This document shows, piece after piece, positions 1-47,998 of a stretch of DNA of 64,000 nucleotides (position 1 is the stretch's first letter; the number at the start of each line of letters is the position of its first letter). Origin of the DNA: Phormidesmis sp. (lineage in GTDB: Bacteria > Cyanobacteriota > Cyanobacteriia > Leptolyngbyales > Leptolyngbyaceae); the NCBI GenBank assembly GCA_965248535.1, contig CBDFJR010000002.1:1888001-1952000 (forward strand), read 5' to 3'. A program made the translations under genes and the position numbers. The notes beneath the pieces are model-generated. The model did no database searches. It saw only the letters and a program-made list of their open reading frames with translations, and was not told where the DNA came from.

Positions 1-793
1 CGTCGATCGGCCACCAGTTAGACAGGGCGTTTTCTAGAGTTGGGGCAACGTCGGGATCAAGCAGGGCCGTCAGATAGCCCAACAGCGCATCAAACCAAAC
101 ATAGAGCGTCTGCTTGGGATCAACGGGCACGGGGAACCCCCAGTCTAGATTCCGCCGAGAGATCGAGAAATCTCGTAGGCCTTGCCCGACAAAATTAAGC
201 ACCTCGTTGCGGCGAGTCGTGGGCAAAATAAAATTGGGTTGGTCTTGATAGAGGCGTTCAAGCTTTTGTTGATAGTTGGATAGGCGGAAGAAATAATTTT
301 CTTCGTCTCGCCACTCGGCTTGTTTGTTAGGGTGGACAGCGCAATAGTGGTCGTCAAGAAGCTCTCGCTCTTCTTTAAACTCTTCACAAGCGACGCAATA
401 CCATCCTTTTTGCTGGCTCAGATAGATGTCGCCGTTCTCCCAAACCCGTTGAAAAAACTCTTCGACAATGGCAGCATGGCGAACGTCAGTGGTGCGAATG
501 AAGCGATCGTAGCGAATGTTGAGTTTATCCCACAGACTTTTAAAGCCTTCTACCACTAAGTCGCAGTGCTCTTGCGGCGATCGCCCCAAACTCTCTGCCG
601 TGCGCTGAATTTTTTGCCCGTGCTCATCGCTTCCCGTCACAAACCAGACCGATTTGCCCTGCAATCTCTGGAAGCGGGCCATCGCATCTGCGGCGATCGT
701 GGGATAGGCGCTGCCAATGTGGGGTAAATCGTTGACGTAGTAAAGCGGTGTCGTGATAGCAAAGGTATGCTTCTCTGGGGGTTCAAAACTCAT
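1..793 (-). CDS. metG: Methionyl-tRNA synthetase, N-terminal part (continues past window start; missing from ORF track)
   Basis: Manual translation from ATG at 793: MSFEPPEKHTFAITTPLYYVNDLPHIGSAY (HIGH-type motif), GSDEHGQKI, GWYCVACEEF, DFSISR, LYVWFDAL. Confidence 0.95.
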   Translation of the reverse strand, partial: MSFEPPEKHTFAITTPLYYVNDLPHIGSAYPTIAADAMARFQRLQGKSVWFVTGSDEHGQKIQRTAESLGRSPQEHCDLVVEGFKSLWDKLNIRYDRFIRTTDVRHAAIVEEFFQRVWENGDIYLSQQKGWYCVACEEFKEERELLDDHYCAVHPNKQAEWRDEENYFFRLSNYQQKLERLYQDQPNFILPTTRRNEVLNFVGQGLRDFSISRRNLDWGFPVPVDPKQTLYVWFDALLGYLTALLDPDVAPTLENALSNWWPID

Positions 794-1218
794 GGATACT
801 ATAAAAACAATCTCAAATCTACAGTCTGTGGGTCACAAGCGACACAAACTCCTGCCTTAACAGTGATTCGGGTTTACTCAAAAACTTAGCTGGCTGAATA
901 ATATAGGGAGACTTTGAATCTTGGCTTGCTAACTCTACTCCTGATTTTAACCACCAACGCTCTGCAAAATTAGCGAAACAATCTTAAATAATTGAGCAGA
1001 AACTTCAGGGGAACTTATCAATCGACTGTTAATTGGATCAATAGATTCAGTTGAGTTCTCAGATTGGTCGATCGGTTCGGTGTTGCTGCCTTGGCTAACC
1101 TTGCTACCCAAACCTGCCGCAGTCAAGCTAGTATTTGTCCCCTGAGAAGTTTGTTAATCTTGGTAAAGTAGAGTCAGTCATCCAATGAATAATCTCTAAA
1201 AACTCTGGTTCGGTGTGC

Positions 1219-1941
1219 ATGGCTTCTGATAGTCCGCTTCAAATTTCGCGGTTGCTGCTCTCGGCGATGGGCGTTCAAATGTATCTGCATCATCGCGATC
1301 GCGTGCCGCAAACAGGCTCCACTTTGGTCGTCAGCAATCACCGCAGTTTTCTTGATGCCCCCGTGTTGATGTCAGCGATCGACCGTCCGATTCGATTCGC
1401 TTGCCATCACTACATGGGTCAGGTGCCCGTCTTGCGCGAAGTGGTCACAAAACTAGGTTGCTTTCCGCTAGAAAGCTCAGAGCAACGACAGCAGAGCTTT
1501 TTCCACCAGGCCATTCAGCTATTAAAAACTCGGCAAGCGGTGGGCGTGTTTCCTGAAGGAACCGAGCCAATGGTCAACAGCCCCGCCCGGTGCGAGATGG
1601 GAGACTTTCAGCGCGGGTTTGCCCATCTGGCCCTCAAAGCCCCCGTGCAAGATTTAGCCGTTTTGCCGATCGCGATCGCCGTCCAAGACGAGACCAAAAG
1701 TTCGGCCGTTCCTTTAAAGCTACTCAGCTTGTTTGACCCCTCTGAGCCACTCTTTAATCAAGAAGGCTGGCATCCCTTAGTGATTTATCAGCGAGTCGAT
1801 GTTTTAGTGGGCCGTCCGTTTTGGATCACACCTGCCCATCGGCAAAAATATCAAGGCAAAGGAGCGCGGGCGATCGTTCAGCATCTCACTGGCCACTGCC
1901 ACGACGAGATCAACCGCCTACTAATTCAGGGATGCTACTGA
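1219..1941 (+). CDS. PlsC-like (lysophospholipid) acyltransferase
   Basis: NHRSFLD (HxxxxD) and VFPEGT acyltransferase motifs; ATG at 1219 preferred over GTG at 1213. Confidence 0.85.
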   Translation: MASDSPLQISRLLLSAMGVQMYLHHRDRVPQTGSTLVVSNHRSFLDAPVLMSAIDRPIRFACHHYMGQVPVLREVVTKLGCFPLESSEQRQQSFFHQAIQLLKTRQAVGVFPEGTEPMVNSPARCEMGDFQRGFAHLALKAPVQDLAVLPIAIAVQDETKSSAVPLKLLSLFDPSEPLFNQEGWHPLVIYQRVDVLVGRPFWITPAHRQKYQGKGARAIVQHLTGHCHDEINRLLIQGCY

Positions 1942-1985
1942 GAGAGCGTTAAATGTCTAAGAATGTCTAATTTAGTTTTTGTGCC

Positions 1986-2855
1986 ATGATTCACAGTCAC
2001 CTCTGCTTTCTCACGCCCAAGACGCTTAGACCCAGTTGTCCACTATTTGTGTTTTTGCCAGGTATGGATGGCACAGGGCAACTCTTGCGAACCCAGACCG
2101 AAGGGCTAGAAGCTAGGTTTGATGTGCGCTGTCTGGCAATCTCACCCGATGATTTGACCAGTTGGGATGAATTGGCCCAGCAGGTTGTTGAGCTAGTCAA
2201 AGGTGAATTGTCTAAAGGTCAGCAGCCCGACCAGCCTCCACGATCGGTCTATCTATGCGGGGAGTCCTTTGGGGGCTGTCTGGCCATGAAGGTCGCTGTT
2301 TTAGCACCAGAGCTATTTCAGCGCATCATTTTAGTCAACCCGGCTTCGTCATTTAACCGCCGACCGTGGATCTCGTGGGGATCGCAACTCAGCCGCTATT
2401 TGCCAGAAGTGGCTTACCGATTTTCGTCCGTGACGTTTTTGCCCCTGTTGGCATCGCTCGATCGCATTGCTCCAGACGATCAGCAAGCCCTGATTCAAGC
2501 TGTCCGATCGGTGCCCCAAAAAACATCGATTTGGCGAATGTCTTTGCTGCACCATTTTCGAGTGCCTCGGCAACAGCTAGGGCAACTCACACAGCCTACT
2601 TTGATTATTGCCAGCGCCGAAGACAAACTGCTGCCGTCGCTGCCAGAAGCCTATCGGTTAAAACGAGCTTTTCACAAGGCCTACGTGGTCGTGCTGCCAG
2701 AAAGTGGCCATAGCTGTCTCTTAGAGTCTGGAGTCAATCTCTATGAGATGATGAAAACCCACGGTTTCTTAGATGAGACGCTCGACTTTAATCAGACAGA
2801 TGCAGTGGGGATCATCGGCTCAAGCGATCGGGGGCTAGCCACCAAAAAGGGGTGA
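1986..2855 (+). CDS. Alpha/beta hydrolase resembling the esterase domain of plant phytyl ester synthases
   Basis: FLPGMDGTG, GESFGG nucleophile elbow, C-terminal GHSCLLE. Confidence 0.85.
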   Translation: MIHSHLCFLTPKTLRPSCPLFVFLPGMDGTGQLLRTQTEGLEARFDVRCLAISPDDLTSWDELAQQVVELVKGELSKGQQPDQPPRSVYLCGESFGGCLAMKVAVLAPELFQRIILVNPASSFNRRPWISWGSQLSRYLPEVAYRFSSVTFLPLLASLDRIAPDDQQALIQAVRSVPQKTSIWRMSLLHHFRVPRQQLGQLTQPTLIIASAEDKLLPSLPEAYRLKRAFHKAYVVVLPESGHSCLLESGVNLYEMMKTHGFLDETLDFNQTDAVGIIGSSDRGLATKKG

Positions 2856-2876
2856 CTTCTCGTTGAGCCGATGCCC

Positions 2877-3950
2877 TCATAGCAAATCTTTAAACTCCGA
2901 TCGCGTGTGCAAAGTTTTGAGAATGGCCTTGATCTCTTGAGTGCGATCTTTTTTGGCAACGAGGGTGACTTTGCCATCTCGGACGACGATCGTATCTTCT
3001 AGCCCGATTGTCACAATCAGTTCATCGTCGCTTGTGGAATAGAGCAGAGTTCCCTTGGTATCTAAGCCAACATGGGTGGCCAGTTCAACGTTGGGGTTGT
3101 CTGCATTTTTGAGCAGTCGCTCGATCGCGGCCCAGTCGCCCAAGTCATCCCAGCCAAAGGTCACGGGCAGCACATAAGCGCAGTCAGTTTTTTCCATCAA
3201 CGCATAGTCAATACTGTTCTTAGGCAGGAGTGGATAGGCCGCAACGCCCTGTTCTTCGAGCAGAGTCATCATGTCTGGGGCGTGGTGGCGCAGTTCTTTG
3301 AGGGCAACCGCCGCCTGAAACACAAACATCCCCCCATTCCAGCTAAAGCGACCGCTGTCTAGAAAGGCTTGAGCCGTCTCGCGATCGGGCTTTTCGGTAA
3401 AGCGATCGACGCGATAGGCCGGATATCCAGGATTGGCCCCATACAATCCAATCTTTTCGCCCTGCTCGATATAGCCATAGCCAGTAGCCGCCTGATTGCA
3501 GGTAATGCCCAGGGTGACGATCGCCGCTTTTTGAACAGCTAAATCGACGGCTGCTGCCAGCGTCGCTTCAAACGTTGCCTGGTTATCGATCCAGTGATCT
3601 GCGGGGAAGAAGCCCACGATCGCATCTTCACCGTAGCGTTTAGCAATCTCTAACGTGCTCCAGGCAACGGCGGGCGCGGTGTCTCGTCCTTCTGGCTCAA
3701 CTAACAGGTTGGCGAGAGGCAGGTCAGGAAGCTGTTCTTGAACGCCTTGGGCCAGGTGAGAAGCCGTGACAACCCAAAGATTATCCCAGCCGTTGGCAGT
3801 TTGGAGCAGCCGATCGGCGGTGGACTGCAAGAGGCTACGATCGCTGCCGTCAAGACATAGAAACTGCTTAGGGCGCTGTTTACGGCTCAACGGCCAAAAG
3901 CGTTCGCCCTTGCCTCCAGCGAGGATAACGGGCACAAGAGGTTGGGTCAT
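2877..3950 (-). CDS. manC: Mannose-1-phosphate guanylyltransferase
   Basis: ILAGGKGERFWPLSR, EPEGRDTAPA, FTEKP, WNGGMF, GWDDLGDW. Confidence 0.93.
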   Translation of the reverse strand: MTQPLVPVILAGGKGERFWPLSRKQRPKQFLCLDGSDRSLLQSTADRLLQTANGWDNLWVVTASHLAQGVQEQLPDLPLANLLVEPEGRDTAPAVAWSTLEIAKRYGEDAIVGFFPADHWIDNQATFEATLAAAVDLAVQKAAIVTLGITCNQAATGYGYIEQGEKIGLYGANPGYPAYRVDRFTEKPDRETAQAFLDSGRFSWNGGMFVFQAAVALKELRHHAPDMMTLLEEQGVAAYPLLPKNSIDYALMEKTDCAYVLPVTFGWDDLGDWAAIERLLKNADNPNVELATHVGLDTKGTLLYSTSDDELIVTIGLEDTIVVRDGKVTLVAKKDRTQEIKAILKTLHTRSEFKDLL

Positions 3951-4447
3951 AGTAAATATCGGTTGCGGGGCAGGTCAAATTAGAGAGCAAGCACAAAGCC
4001 AAAGCTGAGTAGGCGCTGAAAAAACCAGAGCAGCAGAAACGCGCTCCGTGACAATATTAGTGAACATCATCACCTGAAGTCTTCTGAATGACAGTATCTT
4101 CGCGGAGTCTTTTCAATTCATCCTCCTTTCTCAAACAGGACGGTAAGTTCTGCAAAAAGTTCAGGATGTGACTAGTGAACGACTCTAGGTTGGTTTGCTA
4201 GCCATTCGGCCAGATTCAAGGGTAGAATTCCCGGAAGGTTGCTCACCGTAACAATTTCTCTCTATCGTCAAGAAATTGATTCTAAAAAGTGTGTAAAGCG
4301 CCTGACAGTCAAGCATTCAGCCAATTCCATCTGAATAGTGAGAGAAAGCCAGAGAGTTTAGGTTAGGATGTCGAAGAATCATTTGAGAGATTAGGGTAGA
4401 TGACCTCTGGTGTCAGGTCAGTTTTAAGTGGTAGGGAGTGGAACTAG

Positions 4448-5839
4448 TTGAAGAGTCAATCAACGTCAAGACAGCCAAAGCTGCTCGAAAACCGTGAGGG
4501 GCAATCTACGCCCGATGGTTCTGCATCGTCGGTGCCGCATCCCTCAAAAAACCCTGCTAGAGGGCTGACAATCTCTCGCTCGTTGTTCTGGGGCTTTACG
4601 TTTTTGATTGCTGCTACGGCTTCGGCCACGATCGGCACCACGCTGGCGCTGATTACGCCTCTACCGGGTGCGGTTGCCCCCGCAGAAGGGCAAAAGATTT
4701 TTAACGCTCTGTGGCGCAGCGGCTTTCAATATCATGTGGGCCGCCCAGTCAATATTTTAGTGATGGGGATCGATCGCGTTCCTGGGGTGCCAGACGGCTC
4801 AGACGAGGTTTTTTCAGGTCGCAGTGACACCATGCTGCTGCTGCGAATTGACCCAACTGACAACACGGTCAATTTGCTTTCGATCCCCAGAGACACCCAG
4901 GTTGAGATTCCGGGCATCGGGGTGACGAAGATCAACCAAGCAAACGCGAGTGGTGGCCCGGCTCTGGCTCGTCAAGTCGTCACCAACACCCTGAACGGGG
5001 TTGAAGTCGATCGCTATGTGCGGGTCAGCACGAGCGCCTTCCGGGAGTTGGTCGATCTGCTGGGCGGGGTGGATATCTATGTGCCCGAACCGATGTCTTA
5101 TGTAGACAACACCCAAAAGCTCAAGATTGACCTAGCTCAGGGTTGGCAAACTTTGAATGGCAGCCAAGCCGAGCAGTTTGCGCGATTTCGTCACGATAAC
5201 TTTGGTGATATTGGCCGCGTTCAGCGTCAACAGTCCCTGATTAAGGCGCTGCGATCGAAGCTAGCCAGTCCTTTAATGCTGCCGCGAGTGCCCAGTCTGA
5301 TCAACCTGATGCAGAAATATATTGACACGAACCTCAGCGTTGAAGAACTGCTGGCGCTGGTCAATTTTGGGGTGAAGTTAGACAAAAACGATTTCAAGAT
5401 GGTGATGTTGCCAGGACGGTTTAGCACCCCAGACGAATTTTCGGCCAGTTATTGGATTATGGACTCCCAGGGGCGCGATCGCGTCCTGCAAGACTATTTC
5501 AAAGCTGGGGCAATCGATGCATCAAACCCTAGCGTTGGCACACCCGTTAAGATTGCTGTGCAAAACGCCTCTAGCAAACCCGAAGCGGGGAAGCAGTTTG
5601 TGAGTTATTTGACCAGCCTGGGCTATGAGAATGTTTATCTGACGCAAGACTGGGCAGATCACCAAGAAAAAACCCAAATCATTGTGCAAAAAGGAGATTT
5701 GCGATCGGCAAAAGCGCTACAAGCCACGATCGGGTTTGGGGATCTTGAAGCGTCGTCAGTGGGCGACTTAGACTCCGATTTAACCCTCCGCGTCGGAGAT
5801 GACTGGTTAGCCCAGCAGCCCCCTAAATCCAAGAACTGA
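4448..5839 (+). CDS. LCP (LytR-CpsA-Psr) family protein with C-terminal LytR_C-like domain
   Basis: N-terminal TM segment, GRSDTMLL, SIPRDT, RFRHD..GDIGRVQRQQ. Confidence 0.92.
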   Translation: MKSQSTSRQPKLLENREGQSTPDGSASSVPHPSKNPARGLTISRSLFWGFTFLIAATASATIGTTLALITPLPGAVAPAEGQKIFNALWRSGFQYHVGRPVNILVMGIDRVPGVPDGSDEVFSGRSDTMLLLRIDPTDNTVNLLSIPRDTQVEIPGIGVTKINQANASGGPALARQVVTNTLNGVEVDRYVRVSTSAFRELVDLLGGVDIYVPEPMSYVDNTQKLKIDLAQGWQTLNGSQAEQFARFRHDNFGDIGRVQRQQSLIKALRSKLASPLMLPRVPSLINLMQKYIDTNLSVEELLALVNFGVKLDKNDFKMVMLPGRFSTPDEFSASYWIMDSQGRDRVLQDYFKAGAIDASNPSVGTPVKIAVQNASSKPEAGKQFVSYLTSLGYENVYLTQDWADHQEKTQIIVQKGDLRSAKALQATIGFGDLEASSVGDLDSDLTLRVGDDWLAQQPPKSKN

Positions 5840-5875: not shown

Positions 5876-6438
5876 ATGCACCTGCTCCCTCAAAGCCCGA
5901 CTTTTCAGCTAGCTTCTAAAGGATTTGCCCCTGCCTCCCTCTGGTTGCGGGCTGCGATCGTTTTAACCTTAGCTTGCCTTTGGGTGCTGCTCACCGCCAT
6001 GCCTGCCAACGCTCAAAGCAAAACGATCAACTACACCAGCACTCAGCTAGAAAATCGCGATTTTTCAAATGCTGATTTAGAAGGGGGCGTTTTTGTCGCG
6101 GCTGAGATGCGAGAAGCCAACTTTCAAGGCGCTAACTTAAAAAGCGCCATTTTGACCAACGGAAATCTTCTGTCAGCCAATCTGTCTGGGGCAAACTTAA
6201 CCTGGGCACTCGCCGATCGCGTCACCTTTATAAAGCAAACTTGACCAACACTCTGTTTATCGAGGCGACGCTCTCGCGCAGCATTTTAGATGAAGCCGAC
6301 GTGACGGGGGCAGATTTCACCGATGCGCTGCTCGATCGCTACACGGTCACAAAGCTCTGCAAAACGGCTTCGGGGGTCAACCCGGTGACTGGGGTGGCAA
6401 CGCGAGAGAGTCTAGGGTGTCCCGCAAGCTCAGACTGA
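5876..6438 (+). pseudogene. Secreted pentapeptide-repeat protein with a 1-nt frameshift near 6229 (possibly a sequencing error)
   Basis: The two ORFs join into ...VTFYKANLTN... if one T is added to the TTT run; signal peptide, A(D/N)Lxx repeats, C-terminal LC...SLGC as in the paralogs at 22.5-23.7 kb. Confidence 0.85.
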
Positions 6439-43187: not shown

Positions 43188-43472
43188 TCAGTAAACTTCA
43201 TCATGACTGCCAATATCGATCAAGAGGATTTCTTCTTCGTTTGTCTCTAGTTGCTTAATGAAATCGAAAACGATGCGGCAATCGTACTCTACTGTGCAAG
43301 CCCAAGAACCCACTAGTTGCCCTTTAAGCTTGTGAGTTTGGAGGGAGGGTTCAAAAGGATCACTGGACAAAAGCTGTAGGACAGATTCTACTTTTGGCTG
43401 AAGCGCAGGGCGTTTCCGAAGGAGTGCTTTGTAGGCACGCTTAAACGAGGTATCGAAGGTGATGGTTCTCAA
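43188..43472 (-). CDS. RelE/YafQ-type toxin
   Basis: SFKRAYK, LQTHKLKG, RIVF, IDIGSHDEVY. Confidence 0.88.
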   Translation of the reverse strand: MRTITFDTSFKRAYKALLRKRPALQPKVESVLQLLSSDPFEPSLQTHKLKGQLVGSWACTVEYDCRIVFDFIKQLETNEEEILLIDIGSHDEVY

Positions 43473-43681
43473 CGATTTAACTCTGCGATCGCATCTTCCA
43501 CAGAGCCTCTAAATACTGTGCCTGCTTGGTGAGAGGCTTTCGCTTGAACAATGTTGCTAGCAATTTCCGCACGGCGGTGTTCGATGAGTCGGCGCTGGAC
43601 AATTTCGAGTAGCGCCGCTTGATCGTCGATCGAGAGAGATTCGATCGCTTCTAACGCTCCGTTAAATGTGACGGTTTGCAT
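43469..43681 (-). CDS. Probable antitoxin of the RelE-type pair
   Basis: 70 aa; stop overlaps the toxin start by 4 nt. Confidence 0.75.
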   Translation of the reverse strand: MQTVTFNGALEAIESLSIDDQAALLEIVQRRLIEHRRAEIASNIVQAKASHQAGTVFRGSVEDAIAELNR

Positions 43682-43784
43682 GACGACTGGGACTCCAAGC
43701 AGGAAGGTCTATTGCTTTTATTCTATTCAATCACAAGCAATATCTTGTCTGTTTCACTCCAAGAGCGATCGCACATTCAACAAG

Positions 43785-43818
43785 AAGCGATCGCCCTTAG
43801 GAATTTGGGGGCGATCGC
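43785..43818. repeat. 34-bp double-HIP1 hairpin, copy 1
   Basis: AAGCGATCGCCCTTAGGAATTTGGGGGCGATCGC. Confidence 0.85.
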
Positions 43819-43858
43819 TGATCTCGAAATCTGTCTACGTTTAATTACGCCTGACCAC

Positions 43859-44263
43859 TTACCAAATAGTTTGGATTGCGTTGCAGGCTTGAATTTTGTG
43901 ATCGCAGGTGACTAGCGGTAGTTTGAGGGAAAGCGCGGTTGCGGCAATGATCCGATCGGGCATATCGGGAACGACTGCGCGATCGATATGAGCCAGATTT
44001 TCGCTAACCTCTAGGTCGAGGGCAACAATTTCAATACTAGGGATATCCGATTTCACAATTTTGAGAATTTGATTGAGAACACCGCTATCAATACGATTGC
44101 GTTCAGTGAGGTATTGCAGTTCAACCATAGAAATTGCGGAAAGATAGATCATTTGCCCTGATTGTGAGGTCTGATCTAGAGTCTGGATCGCCGTTTCGGA
44201 GAGTTTTTCAAGGTTGCTTAAGTACCACACGATCGCATGCGTATCGGCGATTACTGCACTCAT
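43859..44263 (-). CDS. vapC: PIN-domain (VapC) toxin
   Basis: IADTHAIVW, SAISMVE, DMPDRIIAATA, LVTCD. Confidence 0.9.
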   Translation of the reverse strand: MSAVIADTHAIVWYLSNLEKLSETAIQTLDQTSQSGQMIYLSAISMVELQYLTERNRIDSGVLNQILKIVKSDIPSIEIVALDLEVSENLAHIDRAVVPDMPDRIIAATALSLKLPLVTCDHKIQACNAIQTIW

Positions 44264-44490
44264 GGGTAGAATTCCTCGTGGGGAAAACTTGCCCAAGCTT
44301 CTTGGCGGGCTTGGGTGAAGTCTGCCAAGGTGAGATCAACGGCAGTGTTGCGGCAAAGTCCTTTGATGTTAGGGCGCGGTTGTAGACTGCTGACTTTGGT
44401 ATGGAGGAATTCCGCGAAGTTTATGAGTTCGCGCTGTTGTTCTGGGAGAAGGTCGCGCCAGTATTCAAGGAGAAGTTCTTCTTTACTCAT
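44260..44490 (-). CDS. Probable antitoxin (DUF2281-like)
   Basis: LLPEQQRELINFAEFL; ATGA overlap with vapC. Confidence 0.78.
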   Translation of the reverse strand: MSKEELLLEYWRDLLPEQQRELINFAEFLHTKVSSLQPRPNIKGLCRNTAVDLTLADFTQARQEAWASFPHEEFYP

Positions 44491-44587
44491 GGTTTGGGCG
44501 GCTTTGATCGCGCTTCAGTGGCATTATAACGCTAGCCTTGGGTCGCTCAATGCATTACGCCACGATCGCCCACTCCACAGAACCGCG

Positions 44588-44611
44588 TTGGCGTAGTCTT
44601 TCCGACTGAGC
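44588..44611. mobile_element. SDR5-like 24-nt insertion in a HIP1 site
   Basis: GCG|TTGGCGTAGTCTTTCCGACTGAGC|ATCGC. Confidence 0.65.
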
Positions 44612-44632
44612 ATCGCCCGTTACTCTATAAAA

Positions 44633-44666
44633 AAGCGATCGCTCTTAGGAATTTGGGAGCGATCGC
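44633..44666. repeat. 34-bp double-HIP1 hairpin, copy 2
   Basis: AAGCGATCGCTCTTAGGAATTTGGGAGCGATCGC; 32/34 identical to copy 1. Confidence 0.85.
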
Positions 44667-44829
44667 GGTTTGGGTGGAGAGATACGATCGCCGATTCAGC
44701 CAACCGAAAGCCCGATCGCCCGTCTCGAAAGGTGATTGGCAGCAAATAGGTGGGCGCACGATTCATAGAAATGCAATTTTACATCCCGTTCTAATTTCCT
44801 TCGACGTTGCGATAATAGAGGGAATCTAG

Positions 44830-44949
44830 TTTAAGATTCGTCCGGCAGTGATCGTGTCTGCGGATATGCTCAATCAGGTTTTGGATGATGTGATGGTGGT
44901 GCCCTGCACGTCAAATACTCGCCGCCCGATCGCATCAATGGTTGTTTAA
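44830..44949 (+). pseudogene. MazF/PemK toxin fragment
   Basis: Translates FKIRPAVIVSADMLNQVLDDVMVVPCTSNT; no start codon or antitoxin. Confidence 0.75.
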
Positions 44950-45165: not shown

Positions 45166-46823
45166 ATGAATGAGTTGTATTACGGCGATAATCTGGATGT
45201 TTTGCGGAAGTATGTAAAAGATGAGTCGGTTGATCTTTGCTACATCGACCCGCCGTTTAACTCAAAGCGAAACTATAACCAGATCTATAACAATGTGGGT
45301 AAGGAAGATGTTGCCCAAGCTCAAGCATTCATAGACACTTGGGTTTGGGATGATCTGGCAATTAAGGGTTTTGATGAGATTGTTGAAAATCAGCGCGGGA
45401 TTTTTACACCACAAACCATTAACTTGATCTTGGGATTGCAAACAGTTTTAGGTCAAGGAAGTTTGTTAGCGTATCTGATCAGCATGACGCTAAGAGTTGC
45501 CGAAATTCATCGTGTTTTGAAACCGACAGGTAGCTTTTATTTTCACTGTGATCCAAGCTCTAGTCACTATTTGAAGTTAATTCTAGATTCTATTTTCTGC
45601 GCTCAAGGTGGAGATTTTAGTAACGAAATTATTTGGCAACGCACAACAGCTAAATCATGCAATGACTAAGCAATTGCCAAACAACCACGATGTAATTTTT
45701 TGTCTATCACAAAAGTAGAATTTACATGGAATAGTGAAGCCGCATTTCTCTCTTATGATTTAGAGAATTTGAGCAAGAAACGTCTAGCAAATATTCTATA
45801 AGCATTCTTGGGCGATTGTATCAACTAGATAATTTGACTAATCCCAATCCAGATCGCCCAAACATTAACCTACGAGGGTTTTTTTACAAGGGTATGGCGG
45901 TGGACAAAGGAACGGATGCAGACTGCATATGAAGCAAGAATTATCCAACCCCAGGCTCTGTTCCTCGCTTAAAACGTTATCTTGGATGAGCAGGGTTGCC
46001 TTTGGGCGACACCTGGACAGATATTCCACCATTAAGTTCTCAAGCAAAAGAACGCCTCGGATATCCTACACAGAAGCCTGAAGCCCTTTTAGAACGCATC
46101 ATTCAAGCTAGTAGTAACGAAGGAGATGTAATTCTTGATGCCTACTGCGGATGTGGAACAACCGTTGCTGTTGCCCAAAAACTTAACCGTAAATGGATTG
46201 GCATCGACATCACTTATCAAAGCATTAGTTTAATTCTCAAACGCCTTGAAGATAGCTGTGGTCAAGCAGCCGTCTTTAACGTCAAAATGACAGGCATTCC
46301 TAGAGATATGAAATCTGCCGAAGCCTTAGCCAACAAAAACGACGATAGAACCCGCAAAGAATTTGAAAAGTGGGCAATTCTCACCTTTTCTAACAACCGC
46401 GCCGCCATCAATCAAAAAAAAGGAGCCGACAAAGGCATCGACGGCACCGCATTTTTTATCGAGTCTGAAGGCGGACACGGGCGCATTGTTTTTCAAGTCA
46501 AATCTGGCAAAGTCGATTCTCGTGATATTCGCGATCTCCACGGCACCATGACCCGCGAAAAAGCCGCCCTTGGTGTTTTTATCACCCTCAAAAAACCCAC
46601 CAAAGATATGCTGCAAGAAGCCAAAACTTGCGGGCTTTATCATCACAAAATCATGGGATGTTCCTATGACAAAATCGCGATCGTCACCATTCAAGACATT
46701 ATCGAAGACGGTCTCCGGCTCCACGTTCCTCTCAGCATGGAAGTGCTTAAATCTGCCCAGCGCAAAACCACTGAAGACACCCAACTCCCCATCTTTTTAG
46801 AGCAGATGGATGAAGCTGTGTAG
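45166..46823 (+). pseudogene. N6/N4 DNA methyltransferase fused to an Mrr-like endonuclease domain; multiple frameshifts at ~45660-45995
   Basis: YIDPPFNS (motif IV), [19 protein letters not shown] (motif I), ADKGIDG..FQVKSG. Confidence 0.85.
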
Positions 46824-47152
46824 AATGCAACAACTGTCAACCTAGCGATCGCGATTGGTTGCATAGACTAAACTGAAGTTTGAGCATATTTACACAATTT
46901 AAATTTATAGGTGTGATGAGCTTAGTTCATGAATTTTGAATGGGACGATCGAAAAAACGAGCTTAACATTAGCAAACACGGCTTTGACTTTGCTGATGCT
47001 TATCGCATCTTTGACTTGCCAATGGTCGTTGACCTAGATGAGCGCAGCGACTATGGTGAAGACCGCTCGATCGGGACTGGACTGCTAGACGGACGGGTTG
47101 TAGTGGTTATCTACACTGAGCTGATCAAAGAACAATTCGCATTATTTCCCTA

Positions 47153-47995
47153 GAGGGTGTTATGCACTTTTGTTAAACTGGGAGCATGAGTAGAAAGCCT
47201 TACCCAACAGACGTGAGCGACGAAGAATGGGCATTTGTGGCTCCATATTTAACGTTAATGACAGAAAATGCTCCTCAACGAGACCACAGCCTGCGTGAAG
47301 TGTTCAATGGCTTACGGTACGTGGTGCGAGCGGGAGAAGCTTGGCGACTGATGCCGCATGACTTACCGCCGTGGCATACGGTCTACCAACAAACGCAACG
47401 GTGGCTCAAAGCTGGAGTCTTTGAAACGATGGTGCAGGATTTGCGCGAGACTGCGAATTTTAGCGGGACGCAACGAGCAACCGAGTGCGGTGATTCTAGA
47501 CAGTCGCACCTTGCAATCGACGGTGGAAAGTGGACATCGAGCGGGCTACGATGGCGGGAAACGCAAAAAAGGGAGCAAGGTTCACATGGCGGTGGACACG
47601 CTAGGACATTTGCTTGCCCTGCACGTCACGCCTGCGAACGAGCAAGACCGAGCGCAGGTCGCAGAACTGATGCACCAAGTGCAGCAGATGACGGGGGAAT
47701 CCGTTGAGGTCGCCTTTGTTGACCAAGGCTATACAGGAGCGCAAGCTGCCGCCGATGCTGAGGCAGAAGGCATTCGACTGGAAGTGGTGAAACTGCCGGA
47801 GGCAAAGAAATTTTGTGTTGCTGCCTCGGCGCTGGGTCGTTGAGCGCAGTTTTGGCTGGATGTCGCGGTTTCGGCGATTAGCGCGAGATTACGAGCGGCT
47901 CACAGAAACCCTAATTGGCTTTCACCTGATTGCGTTTGTAATATTGATGGTCAGGCAGTTCGTGAGTATCGGATTTAAAAGTGCATAACACCCTC
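47153..47995 (+). mobile_element. IS5-family insertion sequence, 843 bp
   Basis: Perfect 19-bp TIR GAGGGTGTTATGCACTTTT; TA duplicated at 47151-52 and 47996-97. Confidence 0.93.
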
Positions 47996-47998
47996 TAA
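47186..47998 (+). pseudogene. IS5 DDE transposase with frameshifts near 47450 and 47810
   Basis: [50 protein letters not shown] spread over shifted frames. Confidence 0.88.

Follow-up and report, generated by a model that had tools for sequence, protein, structure and literature searches.

Gene content of the locus and its bracketing repeats

We analyzed a 64,000-nucleotide stretch of the genome of the cyanobacterium Phormidesmis sp. (GenBank assembly GCA_965248535.1, contig CBDFJR010000002.1, positions 1,888,001 to 1,952,000 of the forward strand; this whole stretch is termed the window, and positions in it are counted from its first letter). Within it, a small vapBC toxin-antitoxin (TA) operon is bracketed by two near-identical direct repeats, each of which can fold into a hairpin whose two ends are copies of the octameric highly iterated palindrome HIP1. 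The evidence presented below makes it probable that these repeats arose as a long target duplication when the operon was inserted, and comparable brackets surround other TA cassettes of the same genome. The features of the locus are as follows.

43188 to 43472, minus strand: YafQ-family toxin gene (PF15738, 41.8 bits); partner antitoxin gene at 43469 to 43681 (70 amino acids [aa])
43782 to 43818: repeat copy 1 (H1), double-HIP1 hairpin with the C:G allele, GCGATCGC-CCTTAGGAATTTGGGG-GCGATCGC at 43787 to 43818
43819 to 44629, minus strand: putatively inserted cassette, 811 bp, GC content of 0.487 (0.514 for the window)
43859 to 44263, minus strand: vapC, predicted PIN-domain toxin, 134 aa (PF01850, E = 1.3e-13, 52 bits, cutoff 23.6)
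44260 to 44490, minus strand: antitoxin open reading frame (ORF; vapB), 76 aa, with only a weak DUF2281 match below the cutoff
44550 to 44523, minus strand: promoter-like site, TTGAGC-16-TATAAT, 10/12 positions, a consensus match only, inside the bracket
44630 to 44666: repeat copy 2 (H2), double-HIP1 hairpin with the T:A allele, GCGATCGC-TCTTAGGAATTTGGGA-GCGATCGC at 44635 to 44666

Judged by its sequence, the segment from 43859 to 44490 has the organization of a VapBC system, i.e., a PIN toxin gene that follows a small overlapping antitoxin gene, with the vapC ATG overlapping the antitoxin stop codon. The original prediction, which was made from the letters of the window alone, had placed one complete antitoxin-VapC operon and its upstream region between the repeats; this is borne out, and the promoter-like site also lies inside the bracket. 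Relatives of this VapC are encoded in 538 of the 594 matched stretches, the best 80 being at most 54% identical. The 811-bp cassette (43819 to 44629) contains no integrase or transposase ORF, and no terminal inverted repeats were found at its ends, either by eye or among the computed inverted repeats. The earlier statement that no recombinase is visible in the window also holds: the five matches to PF00589 in the genome all lie outside it (the nearest at C2:2432439, about 480 kb past its end), as do all 11 matches to PF01797. A search of Rfam gave no matches at an E value of ≤1 within 43600 to 44800.

The repeats had been described as 34-bp copies whose only two differences face each other in the fold-back. 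They are present as placed, and a repeat search extended them to 37 nt (34/37 identical, with a start-to-start spacing of 848). The two stem differences (C43795/G43810 in H1 versus T44643/A44658 in H2) together form one base pair in all folds, and a third difference, previously uncounted (G at 43784 versus A at 44632), lies outside the stem. H1 is situated 40 nt past the vapC stop codon, and the neighboring antitoxin gene starts 104 nt downstream of it; H2 is 143 nt upstream of the vapB start. The stem is perfect, with 10 to 11 pairs; RNA folds were computed for both strands as well, and the minimum free energies as DNA are -13.1 kcal/mol for H1 and -12.1 kcal/mol for H2 (z scores of -5.7 and -5.5, respectively). 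On the minus strand, each hairpin is followed by a T-rich sequence, TTCTTGTT after H1 and TTTTTTAT after H2. With up to eight mismatches allowed, the 34-mer has only two copies in the entire 5.03-Mb genome (G000), so that the two copies counted in the window are the only ones genome wide and a chance origin of the repeat is ruled out. Tandem duplication was likewise dismissed, since the intervening sequence shows no relation to that of the flanks.

The paired difference had been taken as a sign of selection on a single-stranded hairpin. The chance that, among three random differences, two fall on facing stem positions and keep the pairing is about 1.5%, in a test that is itself post hoc; a single compensatory change is thus weak evidence on its own, and one covarying pair in two copies does not demonstrate such selection. 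The pair could reflect a terminator-like role, allelic forms of the hairpin, or the copying of one arm from the other.

We then considered the double-HIP1 hairpin as a potential family of sites. The octamer GCGATCGC occurs 70 times in the window (1.9 expected) and 5128 times in the genome. In the genome, a spacer of 16 nt separates successive HIP1 copies 5 times, compared to 5.2 for random placement, and the relaxed pattern GCGATCGC-N10..24-GCGATCGC has 75 sites, compared to about 78 expected, with loops unrelated to one another. Among 90 genomes of the taxonomic family, the 32-nt pattern with up to three mismatches was recovered only from the source genome (0/89 others), and the exact repeat patterns had no matches in the genome-contig and metagenome-contig collections. 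Hence, the motif occurs at chance frequency and does not constitute a family in this genome or its relatives. The suspected enrichment next to TA genes, on the other hand, was recovered, as double-HIP1 sites are overrepresented beside PIN genes: 7 sites (at 5 loci) lie within 500 bp of PF01850 matches versus 0.43 expected, the corresponding figures for single HIP1 sites being 44 versus 29.1. As a separate observation, the loops of the double-HIP1 hairpins at C2:1024544 and at C2:1430012 (locus L015, 2513 to 2553), 17 nt each, read as exact reverse complements (GCTGCCGTCTGGGGAGT and ACTCCCCAGACGGCAGC); a T-run follows both, and the spacer between the palindromic HIP1 sites looks inverted.

Recurrence of bracketed TA cassettes in the genome

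To place the locus in its genomic context, G000 was scanned for comparable brackets by seeding with 12-mers and retaining pairs of length 24 to 150 and spacing 300 to 4000 that did not belong to a longer duplication and whose core had at most four copies. This yielded 84 isolated local direct-repeat pairs, 41 of which had a length of at least 27 and few other repeats around them. The inner ORFs of 25 of these 41 were examined (23 loci with Pfam and NCBIfam, the target locus, and a hicAB unit). A complete type II TA cassette was found inside 12 of the 25 (at least 12 in the genome), each between locus-specific repeats of 27 to 119 nt, and the other 13 enclose other genes or unknown ORFs. The 12 TA brackets are as follows.

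C2:1281915: repeat of 88 nt; UPF0175 and DUF3368
C2:1430016: repeat of 34 nt; HicA and two weak HicB-like ORFs
C2:1737070: repeat of 62 nt; PIN
C2:2065670: repeat of 119 nt; PIN
C2:2201498: repeat of 27 nt; PIN
C2:2342561: repeat of 68 nt; MazE-type and PIN
C2:2382384: repeat of 53 nt; Phd and PIN
C5:587578: repeat of 49 nt; ParD/ParE
C5:955530: repeat of 57 nt; RelN and RelE-like
C5:1033155: repeat of 31 nt; PIN with Uma2 and a TnpB-like gene, 3.1 kb
C5:1964189: repeat of 32 nt; PIN_2
Target locus: repeat of 34 to 37 nt; PIN

Seven of the 21 PF01850 matches in the genome are bracketed in this manner, and the chance of finding 7 in 41 brackets is on the order of 1e-11. This recurrence of direct-repeat brackets around TA cassettes supports the proposal that the repeats at the target locus are the ends of an inserted vapBC cassette. 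All 12 TA-bracket repeats differ in sequence from one another, and only that of the target locus folds strongly (z score of -6.9 versus +1.7 to -2.3 for the other eleven).

Several of these loci have further peculiarities. An eighth PF01850 match (C2:1280905) is found within an array in which another repeat has three copies: at C2:1280407 to 1283060, three repeat copies separate a weak PIN match (C2:1280905 to 1281249) and the UPF0175-DUF3368 pair, an arrangement that looks like two successive insertions into one target. At L106 (C2:2065670/2066467), the 119-nt duplication ends exactly at an ATG, and both the inserted vapB and the gene resident downstream have their own copy of a common upstream region with its start codon, at which they begin. 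Part of this region also occurs in a paralogous cassette at C2:2426409 to 2427186 (66% identity). The bracket repeats of L108 (C2:2201498) and L110 (C2:2382384) are homologous to each other (ACATCTCGGCGGA...GGTCGATGCCATGCGCGA), as though one kind of target had been used twice, and L110 additionally contains a C-terminal PIN fragment (L110:1218 to 1385).

Empty sites and the target locus in relatives

Six of the other brackets were compared to the seven other genomes of the genus by match coordinates, with a further base-by-base alignment for C2:1737070. Empty sites were recovered for five of the six, and a single repeat copy is visible in the two clearest. At C2:1737070, a G000 paralogue and the G007 and G005 orthologues are continuous and have one copy of the 62-nt segment. 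At C2:1281915, the left and right matches overlap by 69 to 97 nt in G007, G005, G001, and G003, which therefore have one repeat copy, and G002 is filled. Further, about 830 to 890 nt are missing from G007 and G004 at C2:2342561, about 950 nt from G006, G004, and G003 at C5:955530 (where G002 is again filled), and about 670 nt from G003 at C2:2065670. The readout at C5:587578 is ambiguous, its repeat being part of a dispersed element.

At the target locus itself, the stretch past proB is hypervariable: it is different in G001, G002, G003, and G006, the four genomes of the genus in which it was traced past proB or Uma2. The stretch fetched from G007 contains nothing past proB, and the vapC relative in that genome (L021) has no such hairpin nearby. 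In G001, proB leads almost directly to the homologue of window position ~49960, and in G003 it is followed by Uma2, an AT-rich foreign ORF, and then the homologue of 48401 onward. The G002 locus is rearranged: the YafQ-partner antitoxin gene is present there as a fragment (87% identity), and 4 nt beyond it stands a single double-HIP1 hairpin that is identical to H2 in its right 16 nt. To its right are homologues of 44773 to 44819 and 44845 to 44903, both from the right outer flank of the window's bracket (44667 to 44903), and vapBC is absent. Thus, a single related hairpin with a longer spacer stands between homologues of both outer flanks, accompanied by further indels. Since one related copy persists at the locus in this sister species, the repeat is, from these alignments, probably target DNA, and before the insertion the hairpin was probably part of the region upstream of the YafQ operon.

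The contigs of four sequencing runs (X1 to X4) were also inspected. One record from X2 joins the end of Uma2 (42985) through 35 other letters, which include the Uma2 3' end as in G002, to 44668, i.e., 1 to 2 nt past H2. When the loose-end and joint strings were compared to the genomes, one chance HIP1 match and the match to the G002 Uma2 end were recovered. No joint skipping 848 bases and no back-joint were found in the X1 to X4 contigs, a search confined to contigs, from which nothing follows.

Left of the YafQ operon (43188 to 43681) come a Uma2 gene and then proB. On the right side of the cassette, an N6_N4 methylase/Mrr gene is broken: this N6_N4 DNA methylase-Mrr_cat fusion is split into ORFs at 45166 to 45669 and 45996 to 46823, with a gap of about 326 nt, and G002 has only 3'-part fragments of it, elsewhere in the island. 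Beyond it, a BrnT-family toxin ORF (46929 to 47153, 74 aa, PF04365) ends at the start of a multicopy insertion sequence (IS)-like element (47150 to 47998), which has a 99% identical copy at G000:C5:190809 to 191661 and many copies in G003.

HIP1 core at the bracket junctions

The TA brackets have 24 repeat boundaries, and at 12 of them the central hexamer of HIP1, CGATCG, is no more than 5 nt away, compared to a mean of 3.44 for random placements, none of 2000 of which reached 12. The full HIP1 octamer is present at 7 boundaries versus 0.89 expected. Among the 72 non-TA repeat pairs from the same scan, CGATCG is found at 19 of 144 boundaries (Fisher P = 1.2e-4). The original suggestion of a HIP1-based capture and excision system is sustained in part: the HIP1 core is enriched at the junctions and the cassette appears to have been inserted, but the hairpin as a dedicated site is not supported.

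A link between HIP1 and recombination has precedents. HIP1 is said, in the title of a 1997 paper by Robinson et al., to promote excision. According to the available part of a recent preprint, HIP1 raises transformation and recombination in PCC 7002 (bioRxiv 10.1101/2024.09.10.611283), and Gupta et al. 1993 are credited, in the consulted portion of PMC13756078, with a HIP1-flanked excision at smtB in Synechococcus PCC 6301.

As a side observation from other cyanobacteria, four Microcoleus loci (L034, L036, L052, and L071) have vapBC relatives bracketed by a hairpin-like repeat of 40 to 66 nt (GGGTGCG[G/T]CGC...GCG[G/A]CGCAC), the two copies of which show partly compensatory differences.

Comparison with known systems

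Insertion of restriction-modification (RM) genes with a long target duplication was reportedly treated by Nobusato et al. in 2000 (Gene 259:99). The footprint comprises unique direct repeats of >30 bp, an empty site with a single repeat copy in another genome, and the lack of a mobility gene; in the part of the study of Furuta, Abe and Kobayashi 2010 that we consulted, cases are described in many bacteria, including Microcystis (88/88), with repeats that often span gene starts or stops, and the footprint is suggested to depend on DNA double-strand breakage by the RM system, release and reentry being stated as unproven (PMC2853133). The locus studied here agrees in that a small addiction-type unit without a mobility gene is flanked by repeats that exceed 30 bp (34 to 37 nt, 34/37 identical, spacing of 848) and are unique in the genome, being neither dispersed nor part of a larger mobile element; the insert consists of vapB, vapC, and the promoter-like site. 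It differs in its cargo, which is a PIN-domain TA module rather than RM genes. More generally, the G000 cases carry type II TA modules (PIN, ParE, RelE, and HicA) with RNA or gyrase as targets and no DNA restriction, and at least 12 of them occur in one genome, with CGATCG enriched at the junctions. Since the cargo consists of RNases and gyrase poisons, the proposed dependence of the footprint on DNA cleavage by a restriction enzyme is weakened.

The excision at smtB is comparable in that HIP1 stands at the ends of a losable segment and is proposed as a site of illegitimate recombination, at least in the accessible part of PMC13756078; it differs in being a 352-bp deletion rather than an insertion with a duplication, and loss of the vapBC segment was not observed here. 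The expectation that such a system had not been described thus needs qualification: the footprint is known for RM genes (PMC2853133) and the HIP1-flanked smtB excision is in print (PMC13756078), as far as the consulted parts of these sources go, but we found no description of long target duplication for TA modules in the literature searched, and the word "toxin" is absent from the text of Furuta et al. 2010 (PMC2853133).

Two systems based on folded DNA were also compared. Integron attC cassettes are, like the present one, small or promoter-poor, often encode TA modules, and are bounded by hairpin-forming sites; however, their sites differ from cassette to cassette, have conserved core sites and bulged bases, and require IntI, with the integrase gene and attI beside the array, whereas the two sites here are copies of each other without these features. 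The attC consensus places RYYYAAC ... GTTRRRY at the foot of the stem. Here, the stem feet are GCGATCGC on both sides, and neither copy contains GTT. Elements of the IS200/IS605 group (HUH Y1) and their nonautonomous derivatives have similar hairpins in the same orientation at both ends; however, they make no target duplication and both hairpins leave on excision, whereas a related hairpin remains in G002. The last contrast draws on that one imperfect empty site. Y1 transposases are encoded elsewhere in G000, as the 11 PF01797 matches attest.

Proposed explanation and its alternatives

We consider it probable, though well short of certain, that H1 and H2 represent a long target duplication left by the insertion of vapBC, and that this is one case of a process that recurs in the genome and the genus. 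Under this explanation, a HIP1-N16-HIP1 hairpin would have resided upstream of a yafQ/dinJ-type operon, and the 811-bp vapBC cassette, with its own promoter, antitoxin, and PIN toxin but no mobility gene, would have inserted so as to leave the ~34- to 37-nt target on both sides. The breaks and joins would be made by host recombination acting on incoming DNA, preferentially beside HIP1-core sites. Candidate routes are two joins at short HIP1 homologies on two chromosome copies or staggered breaks followed by fill-in; with one side joined downstream and the other upstream, the interval between the joins would be duplicated. The resulting direct repeats would permit clean loss of the cassette by recombination between the copies. 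The hairpin would be a passenger, its stem pair being kept as part of a terminator-like RNA hairpin for the minus-strand operons or representing alleles of a constrained hairpin.

Several observations weigh against this explanation. The repeat scan and ORF calls were homemade, and the inner ORFs come from 25 of the 41 candidates. Two TA brackets depart from the simple form: that at C5:1033155 spans 3.1 kb with several genes inside, and the repeat of the ParDE bracket (C5:587578) sits in a dispersed element of ~130 nt. The two repeat copies at C2:1737070 carry different alleles, which points to a donor-borne copy. In other cyanobacteria, a flanking repeat (score of ≥18) was found at 15 of 70 vapBC loci versus 5 of 70 control regions, and CGATCG lies at 5 of 30 boundaries of those loci versus about 1.7 expected, a weak signal; the 70 loci are relatives of the target VapC with full flanks, several of them mutually orthologous, and 4 of the 15 are Microcoleus orthologues. 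As for the proposal that gains and losses at proB-flanking loci break at the repeats, these loci are hypervariable and G002 has one hairpin without vapBC, but G002 does not provide a clean empty site: its hairpin has a 21-nt spacer with A-A at the covarying position, and both inner flanks have been replaced. Finally, one contig each from X1 and X2 matches the window only at 44622 to 44658 and then resembles the right flank of H1 for 10 nt, so that the record combines the T..A hairpin and 11 nt of the H2 left flank with an H1-like right flank. These loose ends are more easily reconciled with a hairpin borne by the cassette than with a newly made duplication, with the proviso that they are 30-letter consensus strings from single contigs, matching nothing in the DNA compared beyond ~10 nt.

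The alternative that survives best, which we nevertheless regard as unlikely, holds that the cassette carries its own hairpin, integrates in Campbell fashion with a resident copy (through the 34-nt homology or within the HIP1 octamer), and leaves by the reverse reaction; host recombination would then use the repeat as an att-like homology, with the C:G and T:A pairs as the donor and recipient alleles. A crossover in the right HIP1 would yield exactly the observed allele pattern, and the X1/X2 record and the allelic difference at C2:1737070 point the same way. So do the effect of HIP1 on recombination during PCC 7002 transformation (bioRxiv 10.1101/2024.09.10.611283) and the invade-amplify-release cycle that Furuta et al. 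propose for such brackets (PMC2853133), as given in the parts of these sources that we used. On the other side are the shortness and single-contig origin of the loose-end strings and the lack of a circle or back-joint among the contigs, the only material inspected; moreover, this alternative leaves the origin of the first bracket unexplained. A fresh target duplication and a cassette-borne copy cannot be separated by these data.

We find it improbable that the repeats are two ordinary intrinsic terminators, which would end minus-strand transcription after vapC and shield the vapBC promoter and would have become alike by local duplication or gene conversion. The T-rich minus-strand sequences after both hairpins and the placement of H1 just past the vapC stop codon are suggestive of such elements, a T-run follows 19 of the 75 double-HIP1 sites versus 227 of 2000 single sites, and a compensatory pair is what an RNA stem would be expected to show. 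Terminator-like hairpins with compensatory differences also exist in the genome: three related ones, of the GCCCCTCTTAGA...TCTGAGAGGGGC type, are found at L015 (5276 to 5310, ~5797 to 5830, and 6079 to 6113; G000:C2:1432776 to 1433612), each preceded by a small ORF, in a phage-like region whose first ORF is integrase-like (L015:160 to 801). However, the minus-strand loop is 12 nt (with a stem of 10 pairs), and a terminator scan, which allows only loops of 3 to 8, found none; the G002 homologue of the hairpin is not followed by a T-run; nothing is left to terminate upstream of H2; and two terminators would not explain the specific bracketing of TA cassettes, mostly by repeats that do not fold. 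Judging from the sequence features, a terminator function is plausible as the role of the hairpin within the preferred explanation, i.e., a long target duplication, with which it is compatible.

The idea put forward in the original prediction, that the folded hairpin is the site of a single-strand recombinase acting in trans (integron attC-like or IS200/IS605 HUH-like), can draw on a strong, perfect hairpin in two directly oriented copies and on the Y1 HUH and tyrosine recombinase (PF00589) matches elsewhere in the genome, but it is highly improbable given that there is no GTTRRRY/RYYYAAC core and no extrahelical base, that searches of the other genomes and collections recovered no copy of the hairpin beyond the two of this genome, that a related hairpin stays at the G002 locus without the cassette whereas HUH elements make no duplication and take their hairpins along, and that the other eleven TA brackets use unrelated repeats that do not fold.

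Implications

The locus is an instance of a known but poorly understood insertion footprint, to which it adds a new class of cargo, an unusual frequency, and a link to HIP1. It touches on three questions, namely, how TA modules move without a mobility gene, what mechanism produces long target duplications, and what HIP1 does. With a dozen events dated by divergence, empty sites in sister species, and a junction motif, this genome makes all three testable in one transformable group. A more modest lesson is that even a conspicuous hairpin with a compensatory change may ride along with an insertion as a passenger and need not be its site.

More tentatively, we suggest that the HIP1-core sites (CGATCG/GCGATCGC) might be the preferred break and join points of a host pathway that inserts recombinase-less TA, addiction, or defense cassettes with long target duplications, perhaps linked to natural transformation and to the multiple chromosome copies of cyanobacteria; the resulting repeats might then let a cassette leave and reenter wherever the target exists. 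If this were true, HIP1 would gain a role in gene-cassette traffic, and the 25-year-old footprint of long target duplication would gain a sequence handle.

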